Positions 1,635-10,336 of a DNA stretch of 32,000 nucleotides are shown here, one piece after another (positions within the stretch are counted from its first letter, which is position 1; the number at the start of each line of letters is the position of its first letter). Below the pieces are notes generated by a model that saw only the letters and a program-made list of their open reading frames with translations, was not told the DNA's origin and did not search any database. The stretch comes from Candidatus Saccharimonadota bacterium (GTDB taxonomy: Bacteria > Patescibacteriota > Saccharimonadia > Saccharimonadales > Saccharimonadaceae). The stretch spans positions 30,001 to 62,000 of the forward strand of contig DIRZ01000002.1 in the NCBI GenBank assembly GCA_002421785.1, given 5' to 3'. The position numbers and the translations under genes were made by a program.

Positions 1635-2918
1635 ATGAACATCTACTTTTCGGGTATTGGTGGCGTGGGGCTGGGGCCTCTTGCCGAAATCGCGCGGGAT
1701 GCCGGACACACGGTCCGTGGCAGTGACGCGCACGAAAGCCTCACTACAGCCGAACTGCAAAGTCGCGGCATCACGGTTAGCAACGATCAGTCAGGCGACT
1801 ACCTTGCCTACTGCCACGTGCAGCAACCCATTGAGTGGCTAGTGTATACTTCTGCCCTCCCCGACAACCACCCCGAACTCGTAAAAGCACGTCAACTTGG
1901 CATCTACACAGCCAAGCGTGATGAGTTAATTAATTACATCATCAAAGAAAAGAACCTGAAGCTGATTGCCGTCGCCGGTACCCATGGCAAAACAACAACC
2001 ACTGCCATGCTGGTGTGGACATTCCGCCAACTTGGAATTCCCGTCAGTTTTTCGGTGGGCTCTAATATGAGCTTTGCTCCAAGTGGTTACTTGGACCCAG
2101 ATGCCCAGTATTTTGTGTATGAGTGTGACGAATTCGACCGTAACTTTTTACATTTCACTCCCCACCTATCGCTCATCACTAGTGTCGATTACGATCACCC
2201 CGACACCTACCCGACGCAGGCAGATTATGCCGATGCGTTCACAACGTTCCTCGGCCAATCAAAGCAGGTTATTATGTGGGACCGCGACACGGTTATTAAT
2301 ATTGTGCCACCCCATGGAACATGGCGACTCCACGAACCCGACATCATTGACTTCAAAATACCCGGCGCCCACAACAGGGCAAACGCTACGCTGATTGCCA
2401 AGGCATGTGAGTACCTAAAAATTGGTGACGAATCACGCATTCGAACCGCTATCGAATCATTCCCTGGCACAGCGCGCCGGTTCGAAAAGCTCGCCGATAA
2501 CCTTTATAGTGACTATGGCCATCATCCGGTAGAAATTGCCGCGACACTGCAGCTTGCGCGCGAGCTCTCCGACCACATCGTGCTCGTATACCAGCCGCAT
2601 CAGAACACCCGGCAGCACCAGGTGCGAAGTGGCTACACCTCATGCATGGAGCTGGCAGAAGAAATATTCTGGCTCCCTACCTACCAATCACGCGAAGACC
2701 TGAACCTTCCGATTTTGAAACCCGAGGAGCTTGCCGCTCGTCTTACGAACCGCAATGTCGTCACCTATGCCGATATGAACGATATGTTATGGGACCACAT
2801 GACCTGGGCGCGCACCAACGGAAAGCTTGTCCTGTGTATGGGCGCAGGTAGTATCGACGCATGGGTGCGAAGTCAACTTGCGGCGACCGCCGATGTTACT
2901 CCAGCTATTCCGTCGTAA
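1635..2918 (+). CDS. murC: Mur ligase family, UDP-N-acetylmuramate--L-alanine ligase-like (MurC; Mpl not excluded)
   Basis: 427 aa. It has the N-terminal dinucleotide-fold motif FSGIGGVGLGPLAEIARDAGHTVRGSD and the Mur-ligase P-loop IAVAGTHGKTTTTAML. DYDHPD and HNRANA motifs are in MurC-like positions. Confidence 0.75.
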   Translation: MNIYFSGIGGVGLGPLAEIARDAGHTVRGSDAHESLTTAELQSRGITVSNDQSGDYLAYCHVQQPIEWLVYTSALPDNHPELVKARQLGIYTAKRDELINYIIKEKNLKLIAVAGTHGKTTTTAMLVWTFRQLGIPVSFSVGSNMSFAPSGYLDPDAQYFVYECDEFDRNFLHFTPHLSLITSVDYDHPDTYPTQADYADAFTTFLGQSKQVIMWDRDTVINIVPPHGTWRLHEPDIIDFKIPGAHNRANATLIAKACEYLKIGDESRIRTAIESFPGTARRFEKLADNLYSDYGHHPVEIAATLQLARELSDHIVLVYQPHQNTRQHQVRSGYTSCMELAEEIFWLPTYQSREDLNLPILKPEELAARLTNRNVVTYADMNDMLWDHMTWARTNGKLVLCMGAGSIDAWVRSQLAATADVTPAIPS

Positions 2919-3573
2919 ACTCTTCAAAAAAGAATGTATCACCGAAAAAGCTTCGGGTCACAATTTGCTCAACCGCAGGGGCTAGCCGTAACTTTGGTAA
3001 ATCGAGGGGCTCTACCCACTGCAAATGATCGGCAGCAGGAATGGCGTCTGTTTCGAAACGGATGATATGTGCGAGCGTCGTGCTCTCTACTTCGCCATCA
3101 GCCATCACTCGAATATAACAATCACCTACATGCCGTAACTTATGCGGGTCGAAGTCAAGCTTTTCGCGAGCTTCGCGGCGCGCCGCGTCAAGGAGCGTGA
3201 CGTCATCAATATGTAGCTTGCCATAAGGCAACGTCCACGTATTGATGTAGGGCTGCTTGGTGCGCTTTTGTAGCAATACCTTGCCATAGCCATCCTGAAC
3301 CAGCAACATGGTAATAATTTTTGGCTGGGTACGCATCTGCATTTTGTCAGAGCTGATACGATCAACGTAGCGAAGCCCCATACGACTCAGGGTATAGCCT
3401 TGGTCAGTTTTGGCGACATACCCCTGCTTTTGCAACAACTTTAAATGGTAGCTAAACAAATTCGTATCAACGCGCGGCGGGCACAAATCGCTAAACCTGG
3501 CGTATTCCTGAAACATTAGTAAACGAACAATCTGGCGCTGTATGTGGTGTTTTAACGTATCATTCTCAAACAT
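2905..3573 (-). CDS. winged-helix DNA-binding domain fused to a Nudix-fold domain with a degenerate Nudix box
   Basis: 222 aa. The N-terminus (IVRLLMFQEYARFSDL...LFSYHLKLLQKQGYVAKTDQGYTLS) looks like a MarR/ArsR-type wHTH. The C-terminal half holds a Nudix-box-like stretch, GKLHIDDVTLLDAARREAREKLDF. The first conserved Glu position reads D, and REAREK replaces REUXEE. Confidence 0.7.
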   Translation of the reverse strand: MFENDTLKHHIQRQIVRLLMFQEYARFSDLCPPRVDTNLFSYHLKLLQKQGYVAKTDQGYTLSRMGLRYVDRISSDKMQMRTQPKIITMLLVQDGYGKVLLQKRTKQPYINTWTLPYGKLHIDDVTLLDAARREAREKLDFDPHKLRHVGDCYIRVMADGEVESTTLAHIIRFETDAIPAADHLQWVEPLDLPKLRLAPAVEQIVTRSFFGDTFFFEEFTTE

Positions 3574-3663
3574 ATTTGACTCAAATCTTACTATCTATAC
3601 CCTATCATACTTATTGATTATAGTGAATATGTAATCTGTAAATATGAAAGGAATAGTGAAAAC

Positions 3664-4815
3664 ATGTCAGTCGAATCAATTACAATTACAAATGAGTTTG
3701 AGCAAAAGATACCCCATGAAGTCGAGCACAAATATATCCCAATTTTCCCTGAAGACCTAGAAGTATACCGATCGAGCGGCTGGCCAATTGAGCAGTTTTA
3801 CTTGAGTCACCCTAGCGAAAGCTTCAGCCTTCGGATGCGAGAAGAATTCAAGGATGGGACATTGCATTACGAAGCGACGTTAAAAGACACTGGGCATATT
3901 ACTCCTGACGGCATATCGCGCATGGAAATAACAACCCCCGTTTCCCCTGAGCTTTACCAGTTATACCGATCGCCCGACACGCCCGTTCTTCGCAAAATAC
4001 GTGCCGAGCCACTTCCGGGCGTGACCGTGGACTTTTACGAAGACGGCATGGTGCAAGTAGAGTCAGAGAGCCCTGCTAACTGGCGAGAGTTCGTGCGCTT
4101 GCACGGTGACAGATTCGTGGAAGTAACTGGTGATCGCAGTAGCGACAATGAATGGAAAGCGCACCTGAGCTTCCGACGCAGTAATAACGGCAACGAGGCG
4201 CTCAAACCCAGCGTCGATTTGGCCTCCAAAGACATCGTTAACGACATATTAGCTGCCAATAAACCGGGCGAGCCAACCATCCTGCACATCGCGGGGCGCT
4301 CTGGGTCGGGTAAATCTACCATCGTTCGCGAGGTCCAGGCTGACTTAAACAACCTCGGTGTTGAGTCTGTCGTGCTGTCTACCGATGATTATCATCGAGG
4401 CAATACCTGGCTCGTGAACTATAACGACGGGGAAGCTTGGACCAAATGGGATGACGCTGTCGTGTACGACACAGCCGCCCTGGCGGTGGACTTAGCCGAA
4501 CTACGCGCCGGAAGGCCCATCTGGCAACGCACCATCGACTTCAGTGTGTGCGAGCCAAAAATTACTGGCACCATCCAACCGGCGCCTGTTGTTATCATCG
4601 AAGGAATCTACGCGGGCAGTGCCGATATTGCGTCGCCAAACCACCTGAGCTACGAAATGACAACACCACTCGCGACCTGTGTTGGCCGACGACTGTTGCG
4701 CGATATGCGGGAACGACCCCAATTTGCCGACCCGGTTGCTAGTCTGGAGTACATGCTCCGTGAGGCTGAGCCGGCCTACCGCCAACAAGAAGCTGCCCGT
4801 GGAGCATCGAAATGA
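3664..4815 (+). CDS. CYTH (triphosphate tunnel metalloenzyme) domain fused to a uridine kinase/phosphoribulokinase-family P-loop kinase
   Basis: 383 aa. The N-terminus has the ExExK signature (HEVEHKY) and CYTH-like strands (IEQFYLS, SLRMRE, ATLKD, RMEIT, RKIRAE, VDFYED..VQVESE). The C-terminal half has Walker A IAGRSGSGKSTIV, plus STDDYHRG, VVIIEGIYAG and RRLLRDMRER, as in Udk/PRK kinases. AAAGGA lies upstream of the ATG. Confidence 0.8.
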   Translation: MSVESITITNEFEQKIPHEVEHKYIPIFPEDLEVYRSSGWPIEQFYLSHPSESFSLRMREEFKDGTLHYEATLKDTGHITPDGISRMEITTPVSPELYQLYRSPDTPVLRKIRAEPLPGVTVDFYEDGMVQVESESPANWREFVRLHGDRFVEVTGDRSSDNEWKAHLSFRRSNNGNEALKPSVDLASKDIVNDILAANKPGEPTILHIAGRSGSGKSTIVREVQADLNNLGVESVVLSTDDYHRGNTWLVNYNDGEAWTKWDDAVVYDTAALAVDLAELRAGRPIWQRTIDFSVCEPKITGTIQPAPVVIIEGIYAGSADIASPNHLSYEMTTPLATCVGRRLLRDMRERPQFADPVASLEYMLREAEPAYRQQEAARGASK

Positions 4816-5087
4816 AACGTGGCGAGATAGTCGAAAACCCCGGCTATCATGTACGTGAGATTCCAAAAGGTGTCATCGGCGAATCAAGCAAAATACTCGA
4901 AGAGGTGCTTGAACTACAAGATGCCGAAGATCAAAATGCTTCGATTATGGCATTGGTCGAATTATCAGATATGGTCGGAGCAATTGAGCTGTACCTTGAA
5001 CATCGTCACCCTACCGTTGCCATCGAGGATTTGCTGATCATGTCACACATTACCCAACGAGCATTCAAAAATGGCCGACGAACGTAA
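4812..5087 (+). CDS. all-alpha NTP pyrophosphohydrolase-like protein (MazG/HisE superfamily)
   Basis: 91 aa. It overlaps the upstream stop by ATGA. EEVLE at residues 30-34 and ELSD at residues 50-53 (ELQD lies between them) fit the paired acidic EExxE...ExxD metal-binding pattern of MazG/PRA-PH-type enzymes. Confidence 0.6.
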   Translation: MKRGEIVENPGYHVREIPKGVIGESSKILEEVLELQDAEDQNASIMALVELSDMVGAIELYLEHRHPTVAIEDLLIMSHITQRAFKNGRRT

Positions 5088-5694
5088 CCTTCCTCACTTC
5101 GAGCCGTCGCTGATTGACTACACGATTTTAGCAGATGGCCTACGCTTTTACACGAACAATGGCTACCCGTACCACGAGGTGCCATGGGTGGTACGACCAG
5201 AAGCCGTCAACGTTACACTACCACCAGGAGCAGAGGCGACCCGCAACCAGTACGGAGACCTCGTGGGCAGCGGTGAACAGAGCTTGATTGAGCTAATGAT
5301 GCGCGGCGAGCACATACAAAAAGCGTGTTGCATTACCCCGTGCTTTCGGCTCGAGCCAGCGTATGACGATCTCCACCATGGTTACTTTATAAAACTAGAG
5401 TTATTCGACACCCAGGCAACTGTGCCGACACTGATGGCAATGGTCGCTTGTGCAAGTGCATTCTATGAGCAGTACATACCAACAAATGTTGTTGAGACAG
5501 GTGTTAATATGTACGACATTGTTGATGCACATAACGGCATAGAGCTTGGCTCATACGGGTTTCGAACATGGAGCGAAGGCACCTTTACATACGGTACTGG
5601 CGTCGCGTTGCCACGGCTAAGCACGGTGATGGCGCAGGCTCAGGGCTCTAAGCCTGGTGAGCCCTCACAAAGTACGACGTACGTCCCTCACTGA
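5071..5694 (+). CDS. minimal class II aminoacyl-tRNA-synthetase-like catalytic core (SerRS-like), no tRNA-binding domain
   Basis: 207 aa; it overlaps the upstream gene by 17 nt. It shows motif-1-like NNGYPYHEVPWVV, LVGSGEQSLIEL, motif-2-like ITPCFRLEP...HHGYFIKLELF, YDIV..GIELGSYGFR, and motif-3-like YGTGVALPRLSTVM. The last roughly 15 codons read antisense into trmB. Confidence 0.6.
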   Translation: MADERNLPHFEPSLIDYTILADGLRFYTNNGYPYHEVPWVVRPEAVNVTLPPGAEATRNQYGDLVGSGEQSLIELMMRGEHIQKACCITPCFRLEPAYDDLHHGYFIKLELFDTQATVPTLMAMVACASAFYEQYIPTNVVETGVNMYDIVDAHNGIELGSYGFRTWSEGTFTYGTGVALPRLSTVMAQAQGSKPGEPSQSTTYVPH

Positions 5695-6295
5695 GCCAAC
5701 GCTGCTCATAGGTCGTCATGATTTTATAATCATCGTCTAACACAGATTCGTGCACATCAAAAGCAAGCTGATCGATACTCCACTTTTCGGCAACGAGCTG
5801 CTCTAGTGACCACGCGAAAAATGCTGGGTCGTCATGCTTCAGGTACAGCGCCCCACTCGAGCTAAGTAGCCCCGAATATTTCGCAAGGAATGTCGGGTGC
5901 GTCATGCGACGGCCGGCGCTTCTACTGCGTGGAAATGGGTCGGGAAATGTCAGCCAAACTTGTGACAACGAATTTGCTTCAAATAGCTCATCAACTTGAT
6001 CTGCGCGCGCCCGAACAAACGCGATATTCGTTACGCCACGTTCAAGCGCTTTATAGGCACCGTGTTGCAAGCGATCTGCCTTGACGTCGACAGCCGCAAA
6101 CATTTGCTCCGGATGGCGTGCGGCGAGCTCGACGCTAAATAACCCGTTCCCCGCACCAATCTCTACGACATCGACAGGACGCTTTTGCCACTCGGCAAAT
6201 TCGAAACAATTTTCGGCGTTGTGAAACTTCGCAAATTTATACTTTTTGCGTTTACGAGTAATAATAAAATCTTCGGGGTTGAGTATTTCTGACAC
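5648..6295 (-). CDS. trmB: tRNA (guanine-N7)-methyltransferase
   Basis: 215 aa with a GTG start. It has the SAM-binding VEIGAGNGLFSVELA motif and the TrmB signature WLTFPDPFPRSRSAGRRM. The layout matches bacterial TrmB. Confidence 0.85.
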   Translation of the reverse strand: MSEILNPEDFIITRKRKKYKFAKFHNAENCFEFAEWQKRPVDVVEIGAGNGLFSVELAARHPEQMFAAVDVKADRLQHGAYKALERGVTNIAFVRARADQVDELFEANSLSQVWLTFPDPFPRSRSAGRRMTHPTFLAKYSGLLSSSGALYLKHDDPAFFAWSLEQLVAEKWSIDQLAFDVHESVLDDDYKIMTTYEQRWLSEGRTSYFVRAHQA

Positions 6296-6344
6296 TACTT
6301 GCCTATTATACTACGGTGTATCTGTTACAATAAGGGTAACCGCT

Positions 6345-8036
6345 ATGCATGCATCTATCTTCACCGAACTCGCAGTCATCGTCACGGTCGTCGTGGCGCT
6401 TTCTGCCCTGATGAAGTTGTTGCGTCAACCGCTCATTATGGGCTACATCATTACCGGTGTGCTAGTCGGTCCCAGTTTTAGCTTTTTCCATATTACTCGC
6501 AATCAAAACGCATTTGACTCGTTTAGTGCCATTGGAATTACCCTCCTACTCTTTATCATTGGGCTTGGGCTAAACGCTGGCGTCATCAAAAGCCTTGGTC
6601 GCGTGTCGTTCACGACCAGTATGTCGATCCTCCCCTTTCTGGGGTTCCTCGGTTTTGGTGCAAGCAAGCTGCTTGGCTTTGACGACACAACAAGCCTTGT
6701 CCTCGCCATGGCCATCTTCTTCAGCAGCACAATTATTGTCCTAAAGACACTTAGTGACAAAAAAGAAACGACCAGGCTGTATGGCCAAATAACGCTTGGC
6801 GTACTCTTAATTGAAGACTTAGTGGCGACCGTTGCCGTCGTGGTACTCGCCATGATGGCAGGTCCAGCCAGCACGGGTGATGTATCAATACTCGCGATTA
6901 TTGCCAAAGCCCTCGCGCTCGGCGGCGGGCTCTACGTGATTGGGCGATTTGTTATGCCATATATTGCACGATTCGTCGCGCAGAGCCAAGAACTGCTCTT
7001 CCTCTTTGCGCTCAGCTGGGGACTTGCTGTCGCCACACTGTTTGATATCGCAGGCTTTAGCCACGAAGTCGGCGCTCTGTTTGCCGGTGTATCACTCGCC
7101 GGTCTACCCTATGCATCCGAAATGGCCGCGAAACTCAAACCGTTACGGGACTTCTTCATTGTTATCTTTTTTGTCACACTGGGCGAATCGTTCACGATTG
7201 AGAGTATTAGGCAAAATCTCTGGGCTGCCTGTGTGCTCGCCGCGATTGTCATTTTTGGCAAACCGCTCTTAGTGCTCATGAGCCTCGGCATCCAACGCTA
7301 TACCAAGCTCACGAGTTTTAAAACCGCTCTCCATTTGTCACAAATTAGCGAGTTTTCTATCATTTTCGTCACCATCGCCGCGAGCAAAGGACTCGTTGCA
7401 GCCGACATGGTGTCGCTGATTACTCTGACTGCATTTATCACAATCGGTATCTCGTCGTATCTCATGAAACATGCTGATGGCCTGTTTAGGGTGTTCGAGA
7501 AACCACTTCGACACTTTGAACGTATCTCCACGCGCAATCCCAAGCAGCACAGGGCCTTCTACCCTGTCATCCTCGTCGGATACCACAAAGGTGGGCACGA
7601 GTTCTTACGAACGTTTCGCGATATGAAGCAGCGCTATATCGTTGTCGACTATGATCCCGAGGTCATTGAATCACTCGAAGAGCAAGGCGTCCGCCACGCA
7701 TACGGAGATGCGACAGACGAAGAATTCCTCGACGAACTCAATGCGGGCCGGGCACAGCTGGTGGTAAGCACCATGACTGACCTCGACACAAACCGTAGTT
7801 TGCTGCTCTATATCCGCCGGCGCAATCAAAAATCCAGTTTCATATGCCATGCCAATAACTATTCAGAAGCAGCAGAATTATACGAACACGGGGCCAGCTA
7901 CGTGAGCCTACCACACTATATCGGAAGCGAGCGTGTCAGCAGCTTCATCAAGCGCCACGGCCTCGACCATGACGCGCTTGCCAATTACCGCGATAAACAT
8001 CTAATTACCATCGGTCGACAGGCGCTCAAAGGCTAG
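6345..8036 (+). CDS. Kef-type monovalent cation:proton antiporter (CPA2) with C-terminal RCK/TrkA-N domain
   Basis: A multi-TM Na+/H+-exchanger-like body is followed by VILVGYHKGGHEFLRTF...IVVDYDPEVIESLEEQGVRHAYGDATDEEFL (Rossmann RCK). I chose the start at ATG 6345 (MHASIFTELAVIV). The track's TTG 6246 start would overlap the trmB start and its promoter. Confidence 0.85.
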   Translation: MHASIFTELAVIVTVVVALSALMKLLRQPLIMGYIITGVLVGPSFSFFHITRNQNAFDSFSAIGITLLLFIIGLGLNAGVIKSLGRVSFTTSMSILPFLGFLGFGASKLLGFDDTTSLVLAMAIFFSSTIIVLKTLSDKKETTRLYGQITLGVLLIEDLVATVAVVVLAMMAGPASTGDVSILAIIAKALALGGGLYVIGRFVMPYIARFVAQSQELLFLFALSWGLAVATLFDIAGFSHEVGALFAGVSLAGLPYASEMAAKLKPLRDFFIVIFFVTLGESFTIESIRQNLWAACVLAAIVIFGKPLLVLMSLGIQRYTKLTSFKTALHLSQISEFSIIFVTIAASKGLVAADMVSLITLTAFITIGISSYLMKHADGLFRVFEKPLRHFERISTRNPKQHRAFYPVILVGYHKGGHEFLRTFRDMKQRYIVVDYDPEVIESLEEQGVRHAYGDATDEEFLDELNAGRAQLVVSTMTDLDTNRSLLLYIRRRNQKSSFICHANNYSEAAELYEHGASYVSLPHYIGSERVSSFIKRHGLDHDALANYRDKHLITIGRQALKG

Positions 8037-8563
8037 CGCAAACGCTCGACCGTGCCGTCGTCGTGAATACGGATCAAACGGGATGGTGGCGTATCAGCCG
8101 GAACGGTGCCACCATCGACATATAGATCAACCGTTTCACCGAAATACTTCTTTGCCTGTGCGACTGTTGCTGCAGGCGGCAGGCCCTCGGGATTAGCACT
8201 TGGCGCGATAAGCGGGCCAGTCCGCGCAATAACATCCTGCAGCCAGTCGACGCTTGGTATGCGGTGTGCGATGAGTAAATTCTCACGATGCAGCCACGCT
8301 GGCGCAGCAGGCGAATCTACCAGTATGCTGGTTGGCGATGTTCGTTCATGATTGATTGCGCTAATATCACCGTAGGCCTGACTGGCGTTCGCGACAAGCA
8401 CGATGCACGACTTGCGAGCATTGCGGCCTTTCGCCTTGTACACCTTCTCAACCGCTTTTTCATTGTCAGCACAAGCAACAACCCCATACAGGGTGTCAGT
8501 GCGCACGACGGCAATTCCGCCCGCCAGCAGTGTTCTGATTAAATGCTCGTACTTACTTTTCAT
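8033..8563 (-). CDS. tsaC: L-threonylcarbamoyladenylate synthase (TsaC/YrdC family)
   Basis: YrdC-fold motifs are present: VVRTDTLYGVVA, KAKGRNARKSCIVLVAN, APSANPEG. I chose the start at ATG 8563 (MKSKYEHL). The longer 8611 start would overlap the divergent mscS start. Confidence 0.8.
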   Translation of the reverse strand: MKSKYEHLIRTLLAGGIAVVRTDTLYGVVACADNEKAVEKVYKAKGRNARKSCIVLVANASQAYGDISAINHERTSPTSILVDSPAAPAWLHRENLLIAHRIPSVDWLQDVIARTGPLIAPSANPEGLPPAATVAQAKKYFGETVDLYVDGGTVPADTPPSRLIRIHDDGTVERLR

Positions 8564-8582
8564 CCCTGTTATAATACCAGAT

Positions 8583-9410
8583 ATGGAACAAATTACGAGC
8601 ATAACCGCCATTCTGGCAATCGGCGCTGCCGGCTATTGGTTCGGACCAGCAATTGTTAATTGGCTCATGGCCCACGTCTTCGTGACGCCCTATCAACGCA
8701 CACTTCACCGTAAGGACCTCGAAAAGCGCCAACGTACGCTCGGCGCACTATTTGCAAATGTCTGGCGAATCATCGTCGTCATGCTCGTGGCCTACGGCGT
8801 TTTCGTTCAGTTCTTCGACTACAAAGCGCTCGCGCCAATCTTTGCGAGCGCAGGCATCATCGGTGTGGCTTTCGGCTTCGGTGCGCAGTCACTCGTCAAA
8901 GATTTCCTAAGTGGCGTGTTCATTATCAGTGAAAACCAGTTCCGGGTTGGCGATATCATTGAAATCGATGGCTTCGGCGGCACGGTCGAACGAATCGGCG
9001 TACGGTCCACGGTCATTCGTGATGTTGATGGCAACGTTCACTACTTCCCCAACGGCATGGTTCAGCATGTCATCAACAAAACGATGGGCTATAGCATGGC
9101 GCGATTTACGGTCGCCGTTGCACCCGACACCGATATAGACAAAGTCAGCAAACTCATCGACAAGCTTGGGTTAGCGCTCGCCAGCGAAGACGACTGGAAA
9201 GACAAAATACTCGAAGCGCCACACTTCGTGATGATGGGCGAATTTACCGCCACGGCGGTCAACCTCATCATTTCCGGCAAAACACAGCCTTCGGATCAGT
9301 GGTCTGTTGTCGCCGAAATGCGTCGACGAATTTTGGAAAAGTTTGAGCAAGAAGCAATTACCATCGGCACTGTTCCCGTTGCCAATGCTGCGCCCACCAA
9401 AAAACGATAG
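8583..9410 (+). CDS. small-conductance mechanosensitive channel (MscS family)
   Basis: TM helices are followed by the MscS core SLVKDFLSGVFIISENQFRVGDIIEIDGFGGTVERIGVRSTVIRDVDGNVHYFPNGMV. I chose the start at ATG 8583 (MEQITS). Confidence 0.85.
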   Translation: MEQITSITAILAIGAAGYWFGPAIVNWLMAHVFVTPYQRTLHRKDLEKRQRTLGALFANVWRIIVVMLVAYGVFVQFFDYKALAPIFASAGIIGVAFGFGAQSLVKDFLSGVFIISENQFRVGDIIEIDGFGGTVERIGVRSTVIRDVDGNVHYFPNGMVQHVINKTMGYSMARFTVAVAPDTDIDKVSKLIDKLGLALASEDDWKDKILEAPHFVMMGEFTATAVNLIISGKTQPSDQWSVVAEMRRRILEKFEQEAITIGTVPVANAAPTKKR

Positions 9411-9413
9411 TGC

Positions 9414-9806
9414 TTACTGCACTTGCTGTGCGTTCGCTGTGGTATCAGCATTCAATAGCTGAAGTGATTCTTCGCTCAAAGCGGCAGCATCAAACCCTTG
9501 GGTTTGACTGACTTTTGCCGCTTGTTCGCTGTAAAGTTTCGAAAAGTTATCGAGCGCAGCCTTGTCCAGCGTGCCCGTCGAAGGGAACGTTTTGGTCGTT
9601 GTATCACGACTTGCCTGCTTTCGTACTTCCTGAAAGCCGGGACGACTAAGGTCGAGCTGGGCGGCGCCACTGCTGTTATAGAGACTCAGCGCAACGCTCA
9701 CGAGAAACGTTGACAGCAAGATGACACCAGCAATCAATACAAAGAACTTGTGCTGTTCCCACCTAGTCATGGCGATAGCATCTTGGCGAAGTTCGTCGAT
9801 GCCCAT
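9414..9806 (-). CDS. hypothetical N-terminally membrane-anchored protein
   Basis: 130 aa with a single TM helix (FFVLIAGVILLSTFLVSVALSLY) and a polar tail. Its ATG overlaps the upstream stop (TAATG). No family recognised. Confidence 0.55.
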   Translation of the reverse strand: MGIDELRQDAIAMTRWEQHKFFVLIAGVILLSTFLVSVALSLYNSSGAAQLDLSRPGFQEVRKQASRDTTTKTFPSTGTLDKAALDNFSKLYSEQAAKVSQTQGFDAAALSEESLQLLNADTTANAQQVQ

Positions 9807-10336
9807 TACTTTACTCCCCCATTCGTCGAAAGCACTTGCGTCTTAAACGCATCGAACTGCGTGCCATACTGCTTCAGCAAGGCACTTAGTGTCGATACAG
9901 AATCATGAACAGACGCCCGATGGCTACGCGCCAGTGTAATCGTGTCGTAGAACGCAACCGGCTGGTCAACGCAGTTCATCTCGATGGCCTTCAGAGTTGT
10001 TTGCTCGTACTGCTGGTAATTAGTACTGAACTGACGAATCACGTTGTTAAAGTCGGCTGTCGTTTGCGTCATTGCGACGTTGTCTAGGCGGTTCAACGCG
10101 ATGCGACTATTCATCGGGGCCATCAAACGCGTCGCGATTGTTTCGTAGCGCTGCCCCAGGTTGACGCGCATCAACCCATCACTGGCGTGGATTCGCTGCA
10201 GTGCGGACTGTACACTCACGCAATTGGTGCGGATTAGTGCGATGTGTTCATCGGTGAGCAAAAAATCTTCCGCACGCGCAACCGGCCCCGTAAAGGCAAG
10301 GAAAACTGCGCATACAATGAGGAGTCGCTTGTACAT
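9806..10336 (-). CDS. hypothetical secreted protein (signal peptide, helical, two Cys)
   Basis: 176 aa. The signal peptide MYKRLLIVCAVFLAFTGPVARA/ED is followed by a helix-rich polar sequence. No family recognised. Confidence 0.6.
   Translation of the reverse strand: MYKRLLIVCAVFLAFTGPVARAEDFLLTDEHIALIRTNCVSVQSALQRIHASDGLMRVNLGQRYETIATRLMAPMNSRIALNRLDNVAMTQTTADFNNVIRQFSTNYQQYEQTTLKAIEMNCVDQPVAFYDTITLARSHRASVHDSVSTLSALLKQYGTQFDAFKTQVLSTNGGVK

Follow-up and report, generated by a model that had tools for sequence, protein, structure and literature searches.

What is a protein with the catalytic motifs of seryl-tRNA synthetase (SerRS), and with only 207 amino acids, doing in a Saccharibacteria-type genome, and to what acceptor would it pass an activated amino acid? 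The question is raised by the window analysed here, a 32,000-nucleotide stretch of contig DIRZ01000002.1 from a Candidatus Saccharimonadota bacterium, where the initial annotation had placed a stand-alone SerRS-like class II catalytic core within an operon of nucleotide enzymes. The open reading frame is real according to the ORF listing, and the four motif strings quoted for it, GYPYHEVPWVV, LVGSGEQSLIEL, TPCFRLEP...HHGYFIKLELF and YGTGVALPRL, all occur in it exactly. The nucleotide-enzyme operon was found as well, with a CYTH/kinase gene, a MazG/HisE-like gene and, beside them, a divergent wHTH-Nudix gene. The genes of the locus are as follows:

2905–3573, minus strand: divergent wHTH-Nudix gene, with a NUDIX match (1.7e-12) and an N-terminal winged-helix match.
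3664–4815, plus strand: first gene of the operon, encoding a CYTH-like N-terminal domain and a uridine/cytidine-kinase-like P-loop domain.
4812–5087, plus strand: gene of the partner, a predicted MazG/HisE-like NTP pyrophosphohydrolase of 91 aa (PHROG 6408).
5071–5694, plus strand: gene of the class II core (PHROG 4806 family), an ATG-initiated open reading frame of 207 aa.
5648–6295, minus strand: trmB (NCBIfam TrmB, 5.5e-43).
5648–5694, 47 nt: convergent overlap between the tail of the core gene and the 3' end of trmB.

The stop codon of the CYTH/kinase gene overlaps the start codon of the partner gene (ATGA), and the stop of the partner gene overlaps the start of the core gene by 17 nt. The antisense overlap with trmB, previously put at the last 15 or so codons, measures about 15.7 codons. 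A scan of positions 3400–6400 for promoters and terminators returned nothing above chance.

The class II fold proposed for the core is borne out by structure and profile comparisons alike. The AlphaFold2 (AF2) model (pLDDT 93.7, pTM 0.88) has the canonical order of strands and helices, with a predicted antiparallel beta-sheet core, accompanying helices and motifs 1, 2 and 3 in succession, as expected of the class II superfamily. When this model was compared with the PDB using Foldseek, 540 matches were obtained at E≤1e-3, the PylRS, SerRS and PheRS cores reaching E ~1e-8 with a TMq of 0.6–0.7; the best 50 of the 540 are almost all class II synthetases (PylRS, SerRS), one being named only 'tRNA synthetase'. 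The cofactor ligases BirA, LplA and LipB, in which a class II-like fold carries biotin- or lipoate-binding motifs, are missing both from these best 50 and from the PDB profile hits (58 at E≤10); the core has every synthetase motif instead. The motifs, all on the plus strand, lie as follows:

5161–5193: motif 1, G31–V41 (GYPYHEVPWVV, including P38 and W39), aligned with the motif 1 region of SerRS.
5269–5280: loop S67-G-E69-Q70, aligned with the T-x-E loop of SerRS (TAEV/TSEQ).
5335–5403: motif 2, T89–L111 (TPCFRLE...YFIKLEL, with R93, F106, K108 and E110).
5542–5565: strand E158-L-G-S161-Y-G-F-R165, a candidate metal/ATP-phosphate site.
5590–5616: motif 3, Y174–R182 (YGTGVALPR, including T176 and R182).

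Among 299 non-identical members of the family, the residues that are 98–100% conserved are S67 and E69 (100%), Q70 (99%), C91, R93 (99%), F106 (99%), K108 (100%), E110 (99%), D149, E158 and S161 (99% each), and T176, A179 and R182 (98% each); in motif 1, P38 and W39 reach 94% and 95%. Both of the ATP arginines of class II enzymes are thus in place, R93 in motif 2 and R182 in motif 3. In the AF2 model, motif 2 forms two antiparallel strands (residues 84–92 and 105–113), and the motif 3 region is a strand (170–180) followed by a helix (182–190). The conserved part of the protein spans residues ~13–190, the N-terminus lying about 15 residues ahead of the motif 1 helix, and the tail (191–207) is unconserved and modelled with a pLDDT of 54–67. 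E158 and S161 are the putative equivalent of the E...S pair of SerRS. The near-invariance of residues in the putative ATP, metal and amino-acid sites supports a prediction of catalytic competence across the family. The core is a minimal folded catalytic core of the class II synthetase type, devoid of a tRNA-binding arm, an anticodon-binding domain or an editing domain.

The proposed likeness to SerRS stands for the N-terminal half of the protein. In a profile search of the PDB, SerRS comes first (1.4e-4), followed by PylRS, PheRS, AspRS and LysRS, and in hhalign the SerRS of E. coli is matched at 90% probability (E 1.4e-6), over residues 26–135 only, compared with 39% for AspRS. This region contains motif 1, the T/S-x-E loop and motif 2, which aligns to HTPCFRSE...HQFDKVEM of the E. 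coli enzyme such that the TPCFRxE and FxKxE columns match. For the molecule as a whole the assignment is less clear-cut: the C-terminal half alone retrieves no synthetase from the PDB by profile and is unrecognizable by sequence, PylRS is an equal match by fold, and PF00587, the Pfam model that contains SerRS, is absent from the 15 Pfam families matched by members of the family, among which PF00152 is hit by 29 of 50 and PF01409 by 14 of 50. Single-sequence searches of Pfam, NCBIfam and the PDB with the core and the partner retrieved nothing. As had been proposed, the N-terminal coiled-coil tRNA-binding arm of bacterial SerRS is missing, the alignment starting only at residue 184 of the E. coli protein; compared with SerRS, the core further lacks the insertions between motifs 2 and 3, has some 6 residues fewer in the motif 2 loop, measures ~190 rather than ~430 aa, and invariably comes with a MazG-like partner. 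Its compactness is similar to that of the catalytic core of PylRS (PylSc), which together with the PheRS alpha core gives the best or equal-best structural match (Foldseek E 8e-9, TMq 0.6–0.66) and to which the PDB profile alignment extends from motif 2 to motif 3. Unlike PylSc, it is smaller by ~80 residues, is only 13–18% identical to the PylRS chains aligned by Foldseek and has amino-acid-site motifs that resemble those of SerRS; it is also not known to have a partner equivalent to the tRNA-binding N-domain of PylRS.

The family is far larger than a single locus would indicate. We found 94 homologues of the core with E values down to 1e-139, and an exhaustive profile search expanded the family to at least 1,663 cluster representatives (1,202 at E≤1e-30), nearly all of them 175–200 aa long, with a median of ~190 aa. 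A point absent from the initial annotation is that this is mainly a phage family: the core corresponds to PHROG 4806 (E 1.9e-32, residues 13–188 on positions 3–185 of the 190-position profile) and the partner to PHROG 6408 (E 2.9e-35, residues 10–91 on positions 2–83 of 83). PHROG 6408 is labelled as of unknown function and PHROG 4806 as "histidyl tRNA synthetase", which probably reflects a weak HisZ/HisE-type resemblance; phage annotation mislabels the core as 'histidyl' or 'seryl tRNA synthetase'. The pair is carried by rV5-like phages of E. coli, T4-like phages of Acinetobacter and phiCbK-like phages of Caulobacter, and it is also present on the chromosome of Agrobacterium rubi. E. coli and A. 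rubi presumably own a serS, so the core is unlikely to be a housekeeping SerRS. A literature search found no published description of the pair and no biochemical result for any member of the family; a 'putative seryl-tRNA synthetase' has been reported on a Microcystis plasmid (PMC12510456), which could not be linked to the core family. A plasmid search with the family and a scan with the PADLOC defence models gave no match.

A second point missed by the initial annotation is that the core and the partner form an obligate two-gene unit. Of 56 viral loci, 52 have the partner gene directly upstream of the core gene in the same orientation (48 of them within ~400 nt), and the two PHROG families comprise 276 and 278 phage records, respectively, with matching host distributions. 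A single fused polypeptide combines both in 14 of 143 representatives (~10% of lineages), in the order core then partner, with a linker of 7–11 residues between the motif 3 arginine and the N-terminal GYH motif of the partner. These fusions and the gene order suggest a physical complex between the two proteins. Both families are acidic, with a median pI of 5.2 (core) and 5.6 (partner).

The partner itself is predicted to be a MazG/HisE-like NTP pyrophosphohydrolase. Across 199 sequences, E30, E31, E34, E50 and D53 of the EExxE...ExxD motif are 100% conserved, with K27 at 99% and D37 at 98–100%. The AF2 model (pLDDT 89) consists of three helices, so that the EExxE(12–28)ExxD signature of all-alpha NTP pyrophosphohydrolases would lie on a helical bundle. 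The top Foldseek matches are HisE (1yvw, 2a7w, 1yxb, 1y6x) and MazG (3cra, 2yxh, 7yh5, 1vmg), at probabilities of 0.90–0.94, yet with E values of 0.6–1.3, which are statistically weak; by sequence, the partner profile retrieved nothing meaningful from the PDB, and hhalign against a canonical MazG from one of the loci (L003) matched only 17 residues of the motif, at negligible probability. The usual MazG fold has four helices, the first of which appears, on comparison, to be replaced in the partner by an extended GYH...KG segment. Of 120 homologues, 93 have an extra domain joined to the partner; elsewhere, this domain occurs between a dNMP-kinase-like gene and a second gene of no identified family, whose GGAEGAD motif may be read as SLOG-like. 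For a domain of ~185 aa that we designated 'X', an assignment as a cupin thiol dioxygenase (HxH...H) was considered; Pfam and PDB profile searches did not support it, and we therefore make no claim on its identity.

In the Saccharibacteria-type genomes the pair is chromosomal. A scan of GTDB genomes with a narrower alignment gave six loci and does not amount to a census. The CYTH/kinase gene adjoins the pair in 4 of the 6 Saccharibacteria-type genomes compared, in two different orders, and its product is a lineage-specific third component that matches PF00485 (5.7e-11), UCK2 (1.8e-8) and plant TTM1 (1e-3), the CYTH matches being weak. The NrtR-like wHTH-Nudix gene lies divergently beside the pair in all six, and its product may regulate the operon. 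The surroundings contain a nucleoside kinase and no tRNA or repair genes.

With these findings in hand, we propose, at a probability of roughly 0.5, that the core and the partner work as a unit of two enzymes, in which a serine-like amino acid is activated and then transferred to an acceptor other than tRNA, probably of the nucleotide type. The core would bind ATP together with a small, polar alpha-amino acid, serine being the likeliest, form the aminoacyl-adenylate and deliver the acyl moiety to an acceptor that is not a tRNA destined for translation; the reason to look beyond tRNA is that every RNA-recognition module is missing. Specificity for serine is suggested by the motif resemblance of the N-terminal half and by the serine contacts of SerRS, which we take to be the T-x-E loop, the Glu of FxKxE and the motif 3 Thr: the candidate equivalents, S67/E69, E110 and T176, are 98–100% conserved, and the first two align with SerRS. 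The missing SerRS match of the C-terminal half and the missing match to PF00587 weigh against it. Least certain are the subsequent steps, in which the acceptor may be nucleotide-like (a nucleoside phosphate in free form, or else a ribose end), the partner may convert an NTP to NMP and PPi, either supplying the acceptor or processing the product, and, in Saccharibacteria, the linked nucleoside-kinase/CYTH protein may act on the same nucleotide pool. The leaning towards nucleotides comes from the linkage to the CYTH/kinase gene, the dNMP-kinase-like context of the extra domain and the acidity of both proteins, and the part assigned to the partner is modelled on phage pathways where the product of an all-alpha NTP pyrophosphatase goes on to an enzyme that modifies nucleotides. 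Such pathways include MazZ-PurZ, which makes 2-aminoadenine, and the T4 dCTPase, which works with dCMP hydroxymethylase and a dNMP kinase; here too a predicted pyrophosphatase of this kind is coupled in the genome to an ATP-using enzyme, which might attach a group to a mononucleotide, and is in some genomes linked to a kinase. Unlike in those systems, the ATP-using enzyme is a class II adenylate former rather than a PurA-type or thymidylate-synthase-type protein, and the pair is found in the core chromosome of Saccharibacteria as well; we know of no modified nucleotide in the phages that carry it.

Synthetase paralogues with unconventional acceptors provide another point of reference. EpmA has ~325 aa, and we know of no MazG-like partner of either EpmA or YadB. 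Glu-Q-RS (YadB) and EpmA/PoxA are paralogues of synthetase cores that use as acceptors a modified tRNA base and a lysine of EF-P, respectively (PMC9437257), and the core, as proposed, would likewise place an amino acid on a non-canonical acceptor. Unlike the core, YadB belongs to class I and EpmA is a paralogue of LysRS.

The alternative that survives best, although we consider it unlikely, shifts the chemistry to RNA ends: the core would be a genuine minimal transferase for seryl or other aminoacyl groups, with the 3' end of tRNA or of damaged RNA as its substrate, and the partner would act on the RNA end or supply nucleotides, jointly serving tRNA maintenance or repair in phages. This possibility derives from the phage neighbourhoods. 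The commonest neighbour of the pair is RlaP, an RNA 3'-end nucleotidyltransferase (PMC12776372), encoded no more than 8 kb away in 8 of 62 neighbourhood groups. It directly adjoins the pair in one locus (L006) and is two genes away in an rV5-like phage (L009) that also encodes a CCA-adding enzyme. At 16 of 60 loci, arrays of tRNA genes or a tmRNA gene are located within 10 kb; two of these loci have tmRNA, one of the two without tRNA. In three (L039, L059 and L079) tRNAs lie directly upstream of the pair, and a class I synthetase gene adjoins the pair in another (L014). Some cores have extensions, either an RNA-polymerase alpha-CTD, as the N-terminal HhH extension of CcrColossus gp133, or a cysteine-rich one that possibly binds Zn, Pfam scans of the N- and C-terminal extensions being mostly empty; in one locus (L074), a fragment of the partner is fused to an RF-1/GGQ domain. 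RlaP, the tRNA genes, the class I synthetase and the alpha-CTD and cysteine-rich extensions all point to RNA ends and away from free nucleotides. However, each of the neighbour associations covers at most 13–27% of the loci, and genes of this sort are clustered in large phages in any case; given that no third gene is conserved beside the pair in more than 8 of 62 groups, we regard RlaP and the NAD-related genes as weak context only. In Saccharibacteria, as described above, the context is one of a nucleoside kinase rather than of tRNA or repair genes. The absence of the tRNA arm, the shortened motif 2 loop and the acidity of both proteins also argue against an RNA substrate, as does the behaviour of arm-deleted SerRS, which retains serine activation and charges tRNA very poorly.

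Less probable still is an AsnA-like amidoligase, which would join a carboxylate to ammonia or an amine at the expense of ATP, or a dinucleoside-polyphosphate synthase of the Ap4A type whose product or substrate is hydrolysed by the partner; there might be a link to the salvage of NAD or nucleotides. The class II fold allows both chemistries, Ap4A being made by class II synthetases. A precedent for amidation is AsnA (PMC9437257). Genes for NAMPT (4 of 62 groups), NADAR (5), Nudix proteins (6) and NAD-dependent ligase (5) occur near the pair, and the divergent NrtR-like gene of all six Saccharibacteria-type genomes fits the same theme, but the frequencies of the NAD-related neighbours are low. 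AsnA, an AspRS-like enzyme of ~330 aa for amidation of the beta-carboxylate of aspartate, is absent from the PDB profile hits of the core at E≤10 and from the best 50 of the 540 Foldseek matches, hhalign against AspRS reaches no more than 39%, and the loop aligned with TxE is invariant in the core. In SerRS this loop is the one that binds the alpha-amino group; its invariance thus points to activation of an alpha-amino acid at its alpha-carboxylate.

We give equally little credence to a regulatory part for the core, in which, as a non-catalytic subunit, it would sense an amino acid and/or ATP and control the partner. The model for such an arrangement would be HisZ, a HisRS-derived protein of ~320–390 aa, and HisE, the family that supplies the best structural matches to the partner, is phosphoribosyl-ATP pyrophosphohydrolase. 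HisZ is a class II paralogue that serves as the allosteric subunit of a nucleotide enzyme, HisG, and has lost adenylation (PMC9437257). The pair described here resembles it in joining a class II paralogue to a nucleotide enzyme, and its tight stoichiometric coupling, up to fusion, would suit a subunit. The core differs in that the catalytic residues are retained: R93, R182 and E158/S161 stay 98–99% conserved among phage and bacterial members that have otherwise diverged widely, which is more than the sensing of a ligand should need. Moreover, HisG is absent from the annotated neighbour genes and clusters, and HisRS from the PDB profile hits of the core.

It is highly improbable that the core is an amino acid:carrier-protein ligase and the 91-aa protein encoded next to it the carrier, an arrangement for which truncated SerRS homologues had been cited as precedent. 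These ligases are ~300 aa long, with a Cys/Glu/Cys zinc site, and in Bradyrhizobium and Agrobacterium a small gene adjoins the ligase gene, as does the gene of a small helical protein of ~85 aa at the truncated SerRS-like core. They are truncated homologues of methanogen-type SerRS that depend on zinc and transfer an amino acid to the phosphopantetheine of a carrier protein (PMC9437257). The core shares with them the SerRS likeness, the missing tRNA-binding domain and, as proposed, a non-tRNA acceptor. Unlike them, it has no candidate zinc site, its one invariant cysteine, C91, being present in bacterial SerRS also, and its neighbour is of the NTP pyrophosphatase type. Neither carrier-protein ligases nor methanogen-type SerRS occur among the PDB profile hits or the best 50 of the 540 Foldseek matches, and the partner, with the invariant MazG metal motif and a fold that matches HisE and MazG, has no serine conserved at ≥90% among 199 sequences that could carry phosphopantetheine. 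The metal motif, the fold and the missing serine effectively refute a carrier role, and the precedent holds as an analogy only. Finally, a decaying serS fragment, the outcome that the initial annotation had named as fatal to its own proposal, or a chance open reading frame, has nothing in its favour besides the shortness of the protein and the overlap of its gene with trmB at the 3' end. It is refuted by the great size of the family (at least 1,663 representatives), its constant length and the strong purifying selection acting on it, together with invariant catalytic residues, a confidently predicted fold and a translationally coupled gene order.

The two-enzyme unit with a non-tRNA acceptor is accordingly the reading that we carry forward. 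Synthetase paralogues that serve acceptors other than tRNA are few (carrier proteins, EF-P, queuosine, asparagine synthesis), and the core family would extend this list, bringing a type of partner that is new to it. To our knowledge, no smaller natural protein retains a full class II adenylation site than this core of ~180–190 residues, which bears directly on the long-standing question of the minimum size of a functional class II synthetase. With at least 1,663 clusters and ~275 sequenced phages, including those of E. coli, Acinetobacter and Caulobacter, the proposal can be tested in standard laboratory systems. That the pair is fixed in some Saccharibacteria, whose genomes are tiny, suggests a genuine function in metabolism there, beyond that of a phage accessory. 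In its most specific form, which we put forward tentatively, the proposal amounts to an unrecognized pathway in which the core loads a seryl-type amino acid onto a mononucleotide made by the partner from an NTP; if this is true, an aminoacylated nucleotide would be a new metabolite, a DNA or RNA precursor or a signal, in large phages and Saccharibacteria.

As a single query, the 207-aa class II synthetase-like protein encoded in the window (the core) matches nothing in Pfam, NCBIfam or the PDB sequences, and the case for its identity is therefore built on relatives and structure. The core gene and its neighbors are as follows:

2905-3573, minus strand: protein with a winged helix and a Nudix domain, the Nudix box degenerate-looking by eye
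3664-4815, plus strand: two-domain protein, CYTH-like and uridine/cytidine-kinase-like (UCK2, 1.8e-8)
4812-5087, plus strand: 91-aa partner protein, PHROG 6408 (no known function), 2.9e-35
5071-5694, plus strand: class II core, 207 aa, ATG start, from the ORF listing
5648-6295, minus strand: trmB, convergent (TrmB equivalog, 5.5e-43)

All the motif strings quoted for this ORF in the initial annotation are present in the 207-aa translation, and the antisense overlap with trmB reported there is confirmed, with the 3' ends of the two genes overlapping by 47 nt. A word-index search retrieved 94 homologs of the core (175-264 aa), and an exhaustive profile search with a cutoff of E<=1e-3 yielded at least 1,663 cluster representatives, of which 1,202 reach E<=1e-30; nearly all of the 150 that were listed have lengths of 175-210 aa. 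Among 299 non-identical members, conservation is 98-100% at every one of S67, E69, Q70, C91, R93, F106, K108, E110, D149, E158, S161, T176, A179 and R182.

The AlphaFold2 model of the core, run with the family alignment, has a pLDDT of 93.7 and a pTM of 0.88, shows the helix-strand order typical of class II cores, and is of low confidence only in the last 17 residues, that is, the stretch overlapping trmB. Foldseek comparison with the PDB gave 540 matches at E<=1e-3, the best being PylRS, SerRS and PheRS-type cores (E about 1e-8, TMq 0.6-0.7). When the family profile is compared with PDB sequences, SerRS comes first (1.4e-4, 4.5e-4), followed by PylRS, PheRS, AspRS and LysRS. In hhalign, the core aligns with Escherichia coli SerRS over residues 26-135 at 90% probability (E 1.4e-6; matched columns S-G-E-Q/T-A-E-V, ITPCFRLE/HTPCFRSE and YFIKLEL/HQFDKVEM), and with the AspRS encoded in the same window at 39%. 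Structure and profile comparisons thus agree on the class II assignment. The closeness to SerRS proposed initially holds only in part: the PDB profile and the hhalign alignment over 26-135 support it, whereas PF00587 is absent from the 15 Pfam families matched by individual core members (PF00152 in 29 of 50, PF01409 in 14 of 50), PylRS matches the fold as well as SerRS, and the C-terminal half alone matches nothing in the PDB by profile. We read the core as a distinct, probably SerRS-derived lineage in which the coiled-coil arm and the insertions separating motif 2 from motif 3 are gone and the motif 2 loop is shortened. E110 and T176 may correspond to the pair of SerRS residues that bind the serine hydroxyl. 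The large, length-constant family, the confident fold and the 98-100% conservation of catalytic-site residues rule out that the core is a decaying remnant of serS.

The core matches PHROG 4806 (1.9e-32), labeled 'histidyl tRNA synthetase', and RefSeq phage records carry the same label (NC_049494, NC_049492, NC_019406 and others); GenBank records use 'seryl-tRNA synthetase'. The PDB matches of the family profile include no HisRS chain, and the histidyl label is misleading.

The 3' end of the partner gene overlaps the start of the core by 17 nt. The partner family is even better conserved, with 55-80% identity between phages and bacteria, and K27, E30, E31, E34, D37, E50 and D53 are 98-100% invariant in 199 sequences. 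These residues constitute the EExxE...ExxD metal motif of the all-alpha NTP pyrophosphohydrolases; GYH, KG and RAFxxGRR are further, family-specific motifs. The partner model is a three-helix unit (pLDDT 89) whose best PDB matches in Foldseek are HisE (1yvw, 2a7w, 1yxb, 1y6x) and MazG (3cra, 2yxh, 7yh5, 1vmg), at probabilities of 0.90-0.94; the E-values are weak, which the small size of this helical domain would lead one to expect. No serine is conserved at >=90% in the 199 sequences, and the partner is therefore not a phosphopantetheine carrier.

In the phage collection, the core occurs in 276 records and the partner in 278, with the same breakdown by host (core/partner, for example: Escherichia 112/113, Acinetobacter 61/59, Caulobacter 13/13). 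Among 56 viral contigs retrieved via the partner alone, the core lies downstream on the same strand in 52, within ~400 nt in 48, and most of the gene pairs overlap by a few bases (annotated examples: Acinetobacter phage Octan 117/116, CcrColossus gp132/gp133, Escherichia phage A5-4 141/140). In 14 of 143 cluster representatives the two are fused, the core being N-terminal, with only 7-11 residues between the motif 3 arginine and the partner GYH. When every neighbor up to 8 kb away was clustered across 62 dereplicated groups, no conserved third gene emerged; the commonest are RlaP (8 groups), Nudix, ClpP and SNF2 helicase (6 each), NADAR, NAD-dependent ligase and dCMP deaminase (5 each), and NAMPT (4). 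Core and partner are one unit, obligately coupled genetically and, sometimes, covalently. The core, initially described as stand-alone, is so as a single polypeptide here, but it is half of a two-gene unit whose MazG-like member had been overlooked.

Some members depart from this layout. Octan gp117 (L001 4390-5013, 207 aa), annotated only as 'MazG-like domain protein', has the partner domain at the N-terminus, and its last ~17 residues (190-206) again give a short partner-profile match. The CcrColossus gp133 core (L002 4758-5612) carries an N-terminal RNA polymerase alpha-CTD-like (HhH) module (PF03118, 3.1e-6), and core representatives P0245 and P0296 have cysteine-rich N-extensions. In 93 of 120 partner homologs, a ~185-aa domain is fused N-terminally to the partner; it has no Pfam or PDB sequence match and no assigned fold, and its H58, H60, C95 and H133 are invariant (alignment A6). 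At one locus, a stand-alone copy of this domain is flanked on one side by a dNMP-kinase-like gene and on the other by one that begins with 'SGGAEGAD'; the latter gene has no family match and, from its GGAEGAD motif, looks SLOG-like by eye. Elsewhere, the first two partner helices (GYH...EExxE...ELSD) are fused to an RF-1/GGQ peptidyl-tRNA-hydrolase domain (PF00472, 2.7e-13), with no class II core detected at either locus. Some jumbo-phage loci have, near the pair, phage tmRNAs and tRNAs with a CUA anticodon, called 'tRNA-Pyl' by ARAGORN and probably amber suppressors. The locations are:

L029, L032, L035, L036, about 9300-10000: ~185-aa domain fused to the partner
L081 5001-5567: stand-alone ~185-aa domain
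L074 9756-10310; L075 10016-10570: partner-helix/RF-1 GGQ fusions
L032 586-673; L051 16369-16444; L045 8352-8744; L007 8969-9283: CUA tRNAs or phage tmRNAs

The pair is found mostly in phages >100 kb: rV5-like, Acinetobacter and Morganella T4-like, and phiCbK-like phages, Brevundimonas, Xanthomonas, Stenotrophomonas and Vibrio jumbo phages, and Microcystis and Campylobacter phages. The window itself is cellular DNA, with genes for a Mur ligase family protein, AspRS, a Sua5/YciO/YrdC-family protein, a mechanosensitive channel and trmB, and no tRNA genes in its 32,000 nt. The Sua5/YciO/YrdC-family ORF (8033-8611, minus strand) and the MscS-like ORF (8403-9410, plus strand) overlap by ~200 nt on opposite strands, probably because one start codon is mis-set. 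The closest relatives are Candidatus Saccharibacteria-type assemblies (53-99% identity, shared synteny). In 6 of 6 such genomes the winged helix-Nudix gene is transcribed divergently from the pair, and its product resembles a nucleotide-sensing regulator of the NrtR type whose two domains stand in the opposite order; the CYTH/kinase gene is in the operon in 4 of 6, upstream in two and downstream in two. The N-terminal half of the latter protein has the CYTH 'ExExK' signature (EVEHK) and weakly matches CYTH structures 2fbl and 3typ; besides UCK2, the C-terminal half matches plant TTM1 (1e-3) and NRK1 (0.04). On an Agrobacterium rubi chromosome (L080 8001-9407), a three-gene cassette ~3 kb from a Wadjet (JetABC) defense locus encodes the partner, a helical protein of 183 aa that is unrelated, and the core. 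Because E. coli and Agrobacterium hosts presumably have a normal serS, the core family is not a replacement synthetase.

To our knowledge, the aa:CP ligases, HisZ, AsnA, PoxA, YadB and SLIMP are all clearly larger than the core. Unlike the core, none of these reviewed synthetase paralogs is paired with a MazG-like enzyme (PMC9437257). SerRS has a tRNA arm, which the core lacks. The precedent of aa:carrier-protein ligases invoked initially serves only as an analogy: these have a zinc site and a carrier, both absent here. HisZ derives from HisRS, has lost catalysis and pairs with HisG, none of which holds for the core. Neither AsnA nor BirA/LplA appears among the PDB profile hits or the best 50 of the 540 Foldseek matches. 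In two phage-genome surveys from the Aravind lab, MazG-family pyrophosphatases receive only general mention (PMC7824862, PMC9503650), and a full-text literature search found no description of the pair.

The strongly constrained elements are the class II adenylation site of the core and the NTP-pyrophosphatase-type site of the partner. The core would use ATP to turn a small, polar alpha-amino acid, with serine as the best guess, into an aminoacyl-adenylate and, given that it has no RNA-recognition module, would transfer the acyl group to an acceptor other than tRNA. We propose that this acceptor is nucleotide-like and that the partner either makes, from an NTP, the NMP that undergoes modification or trims the product. 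Action on nucleotides is favored because the only chemistry that we know of in the partner superfamily is on nucleoside triphosphates, the nucleoside kinase/CYTH gene is linked to the pair in Saccharibacteria, the ~185-aa domain also stands beside a dNMP-kinase-like gene, and both proteins are acidic. Several observations favor action of the pair at RNA ends, a less likely alternative: RlaP, its commonest neighbor, adds nucleotides to RNA 3' ends (2025 preprint, PMC12776372), 16 of 60 loci have a tRNA or tmRNA gene no more than 10 kb away, a class I synthetase adjoins the pair in one locus (L014), and occasional cores carry the alpha-CTD or cysteine-rich, possibly Zn-binding, extensions; none of these associations is frequent enough to choose between the two.

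The finding goes beyond the lone core of the initial annotation: the core is half of a widespread, uncharacterized two-enzyme system, mislabeled in phage annotations, that is experimentally tractable and may, by our inference, act on nucleotides.
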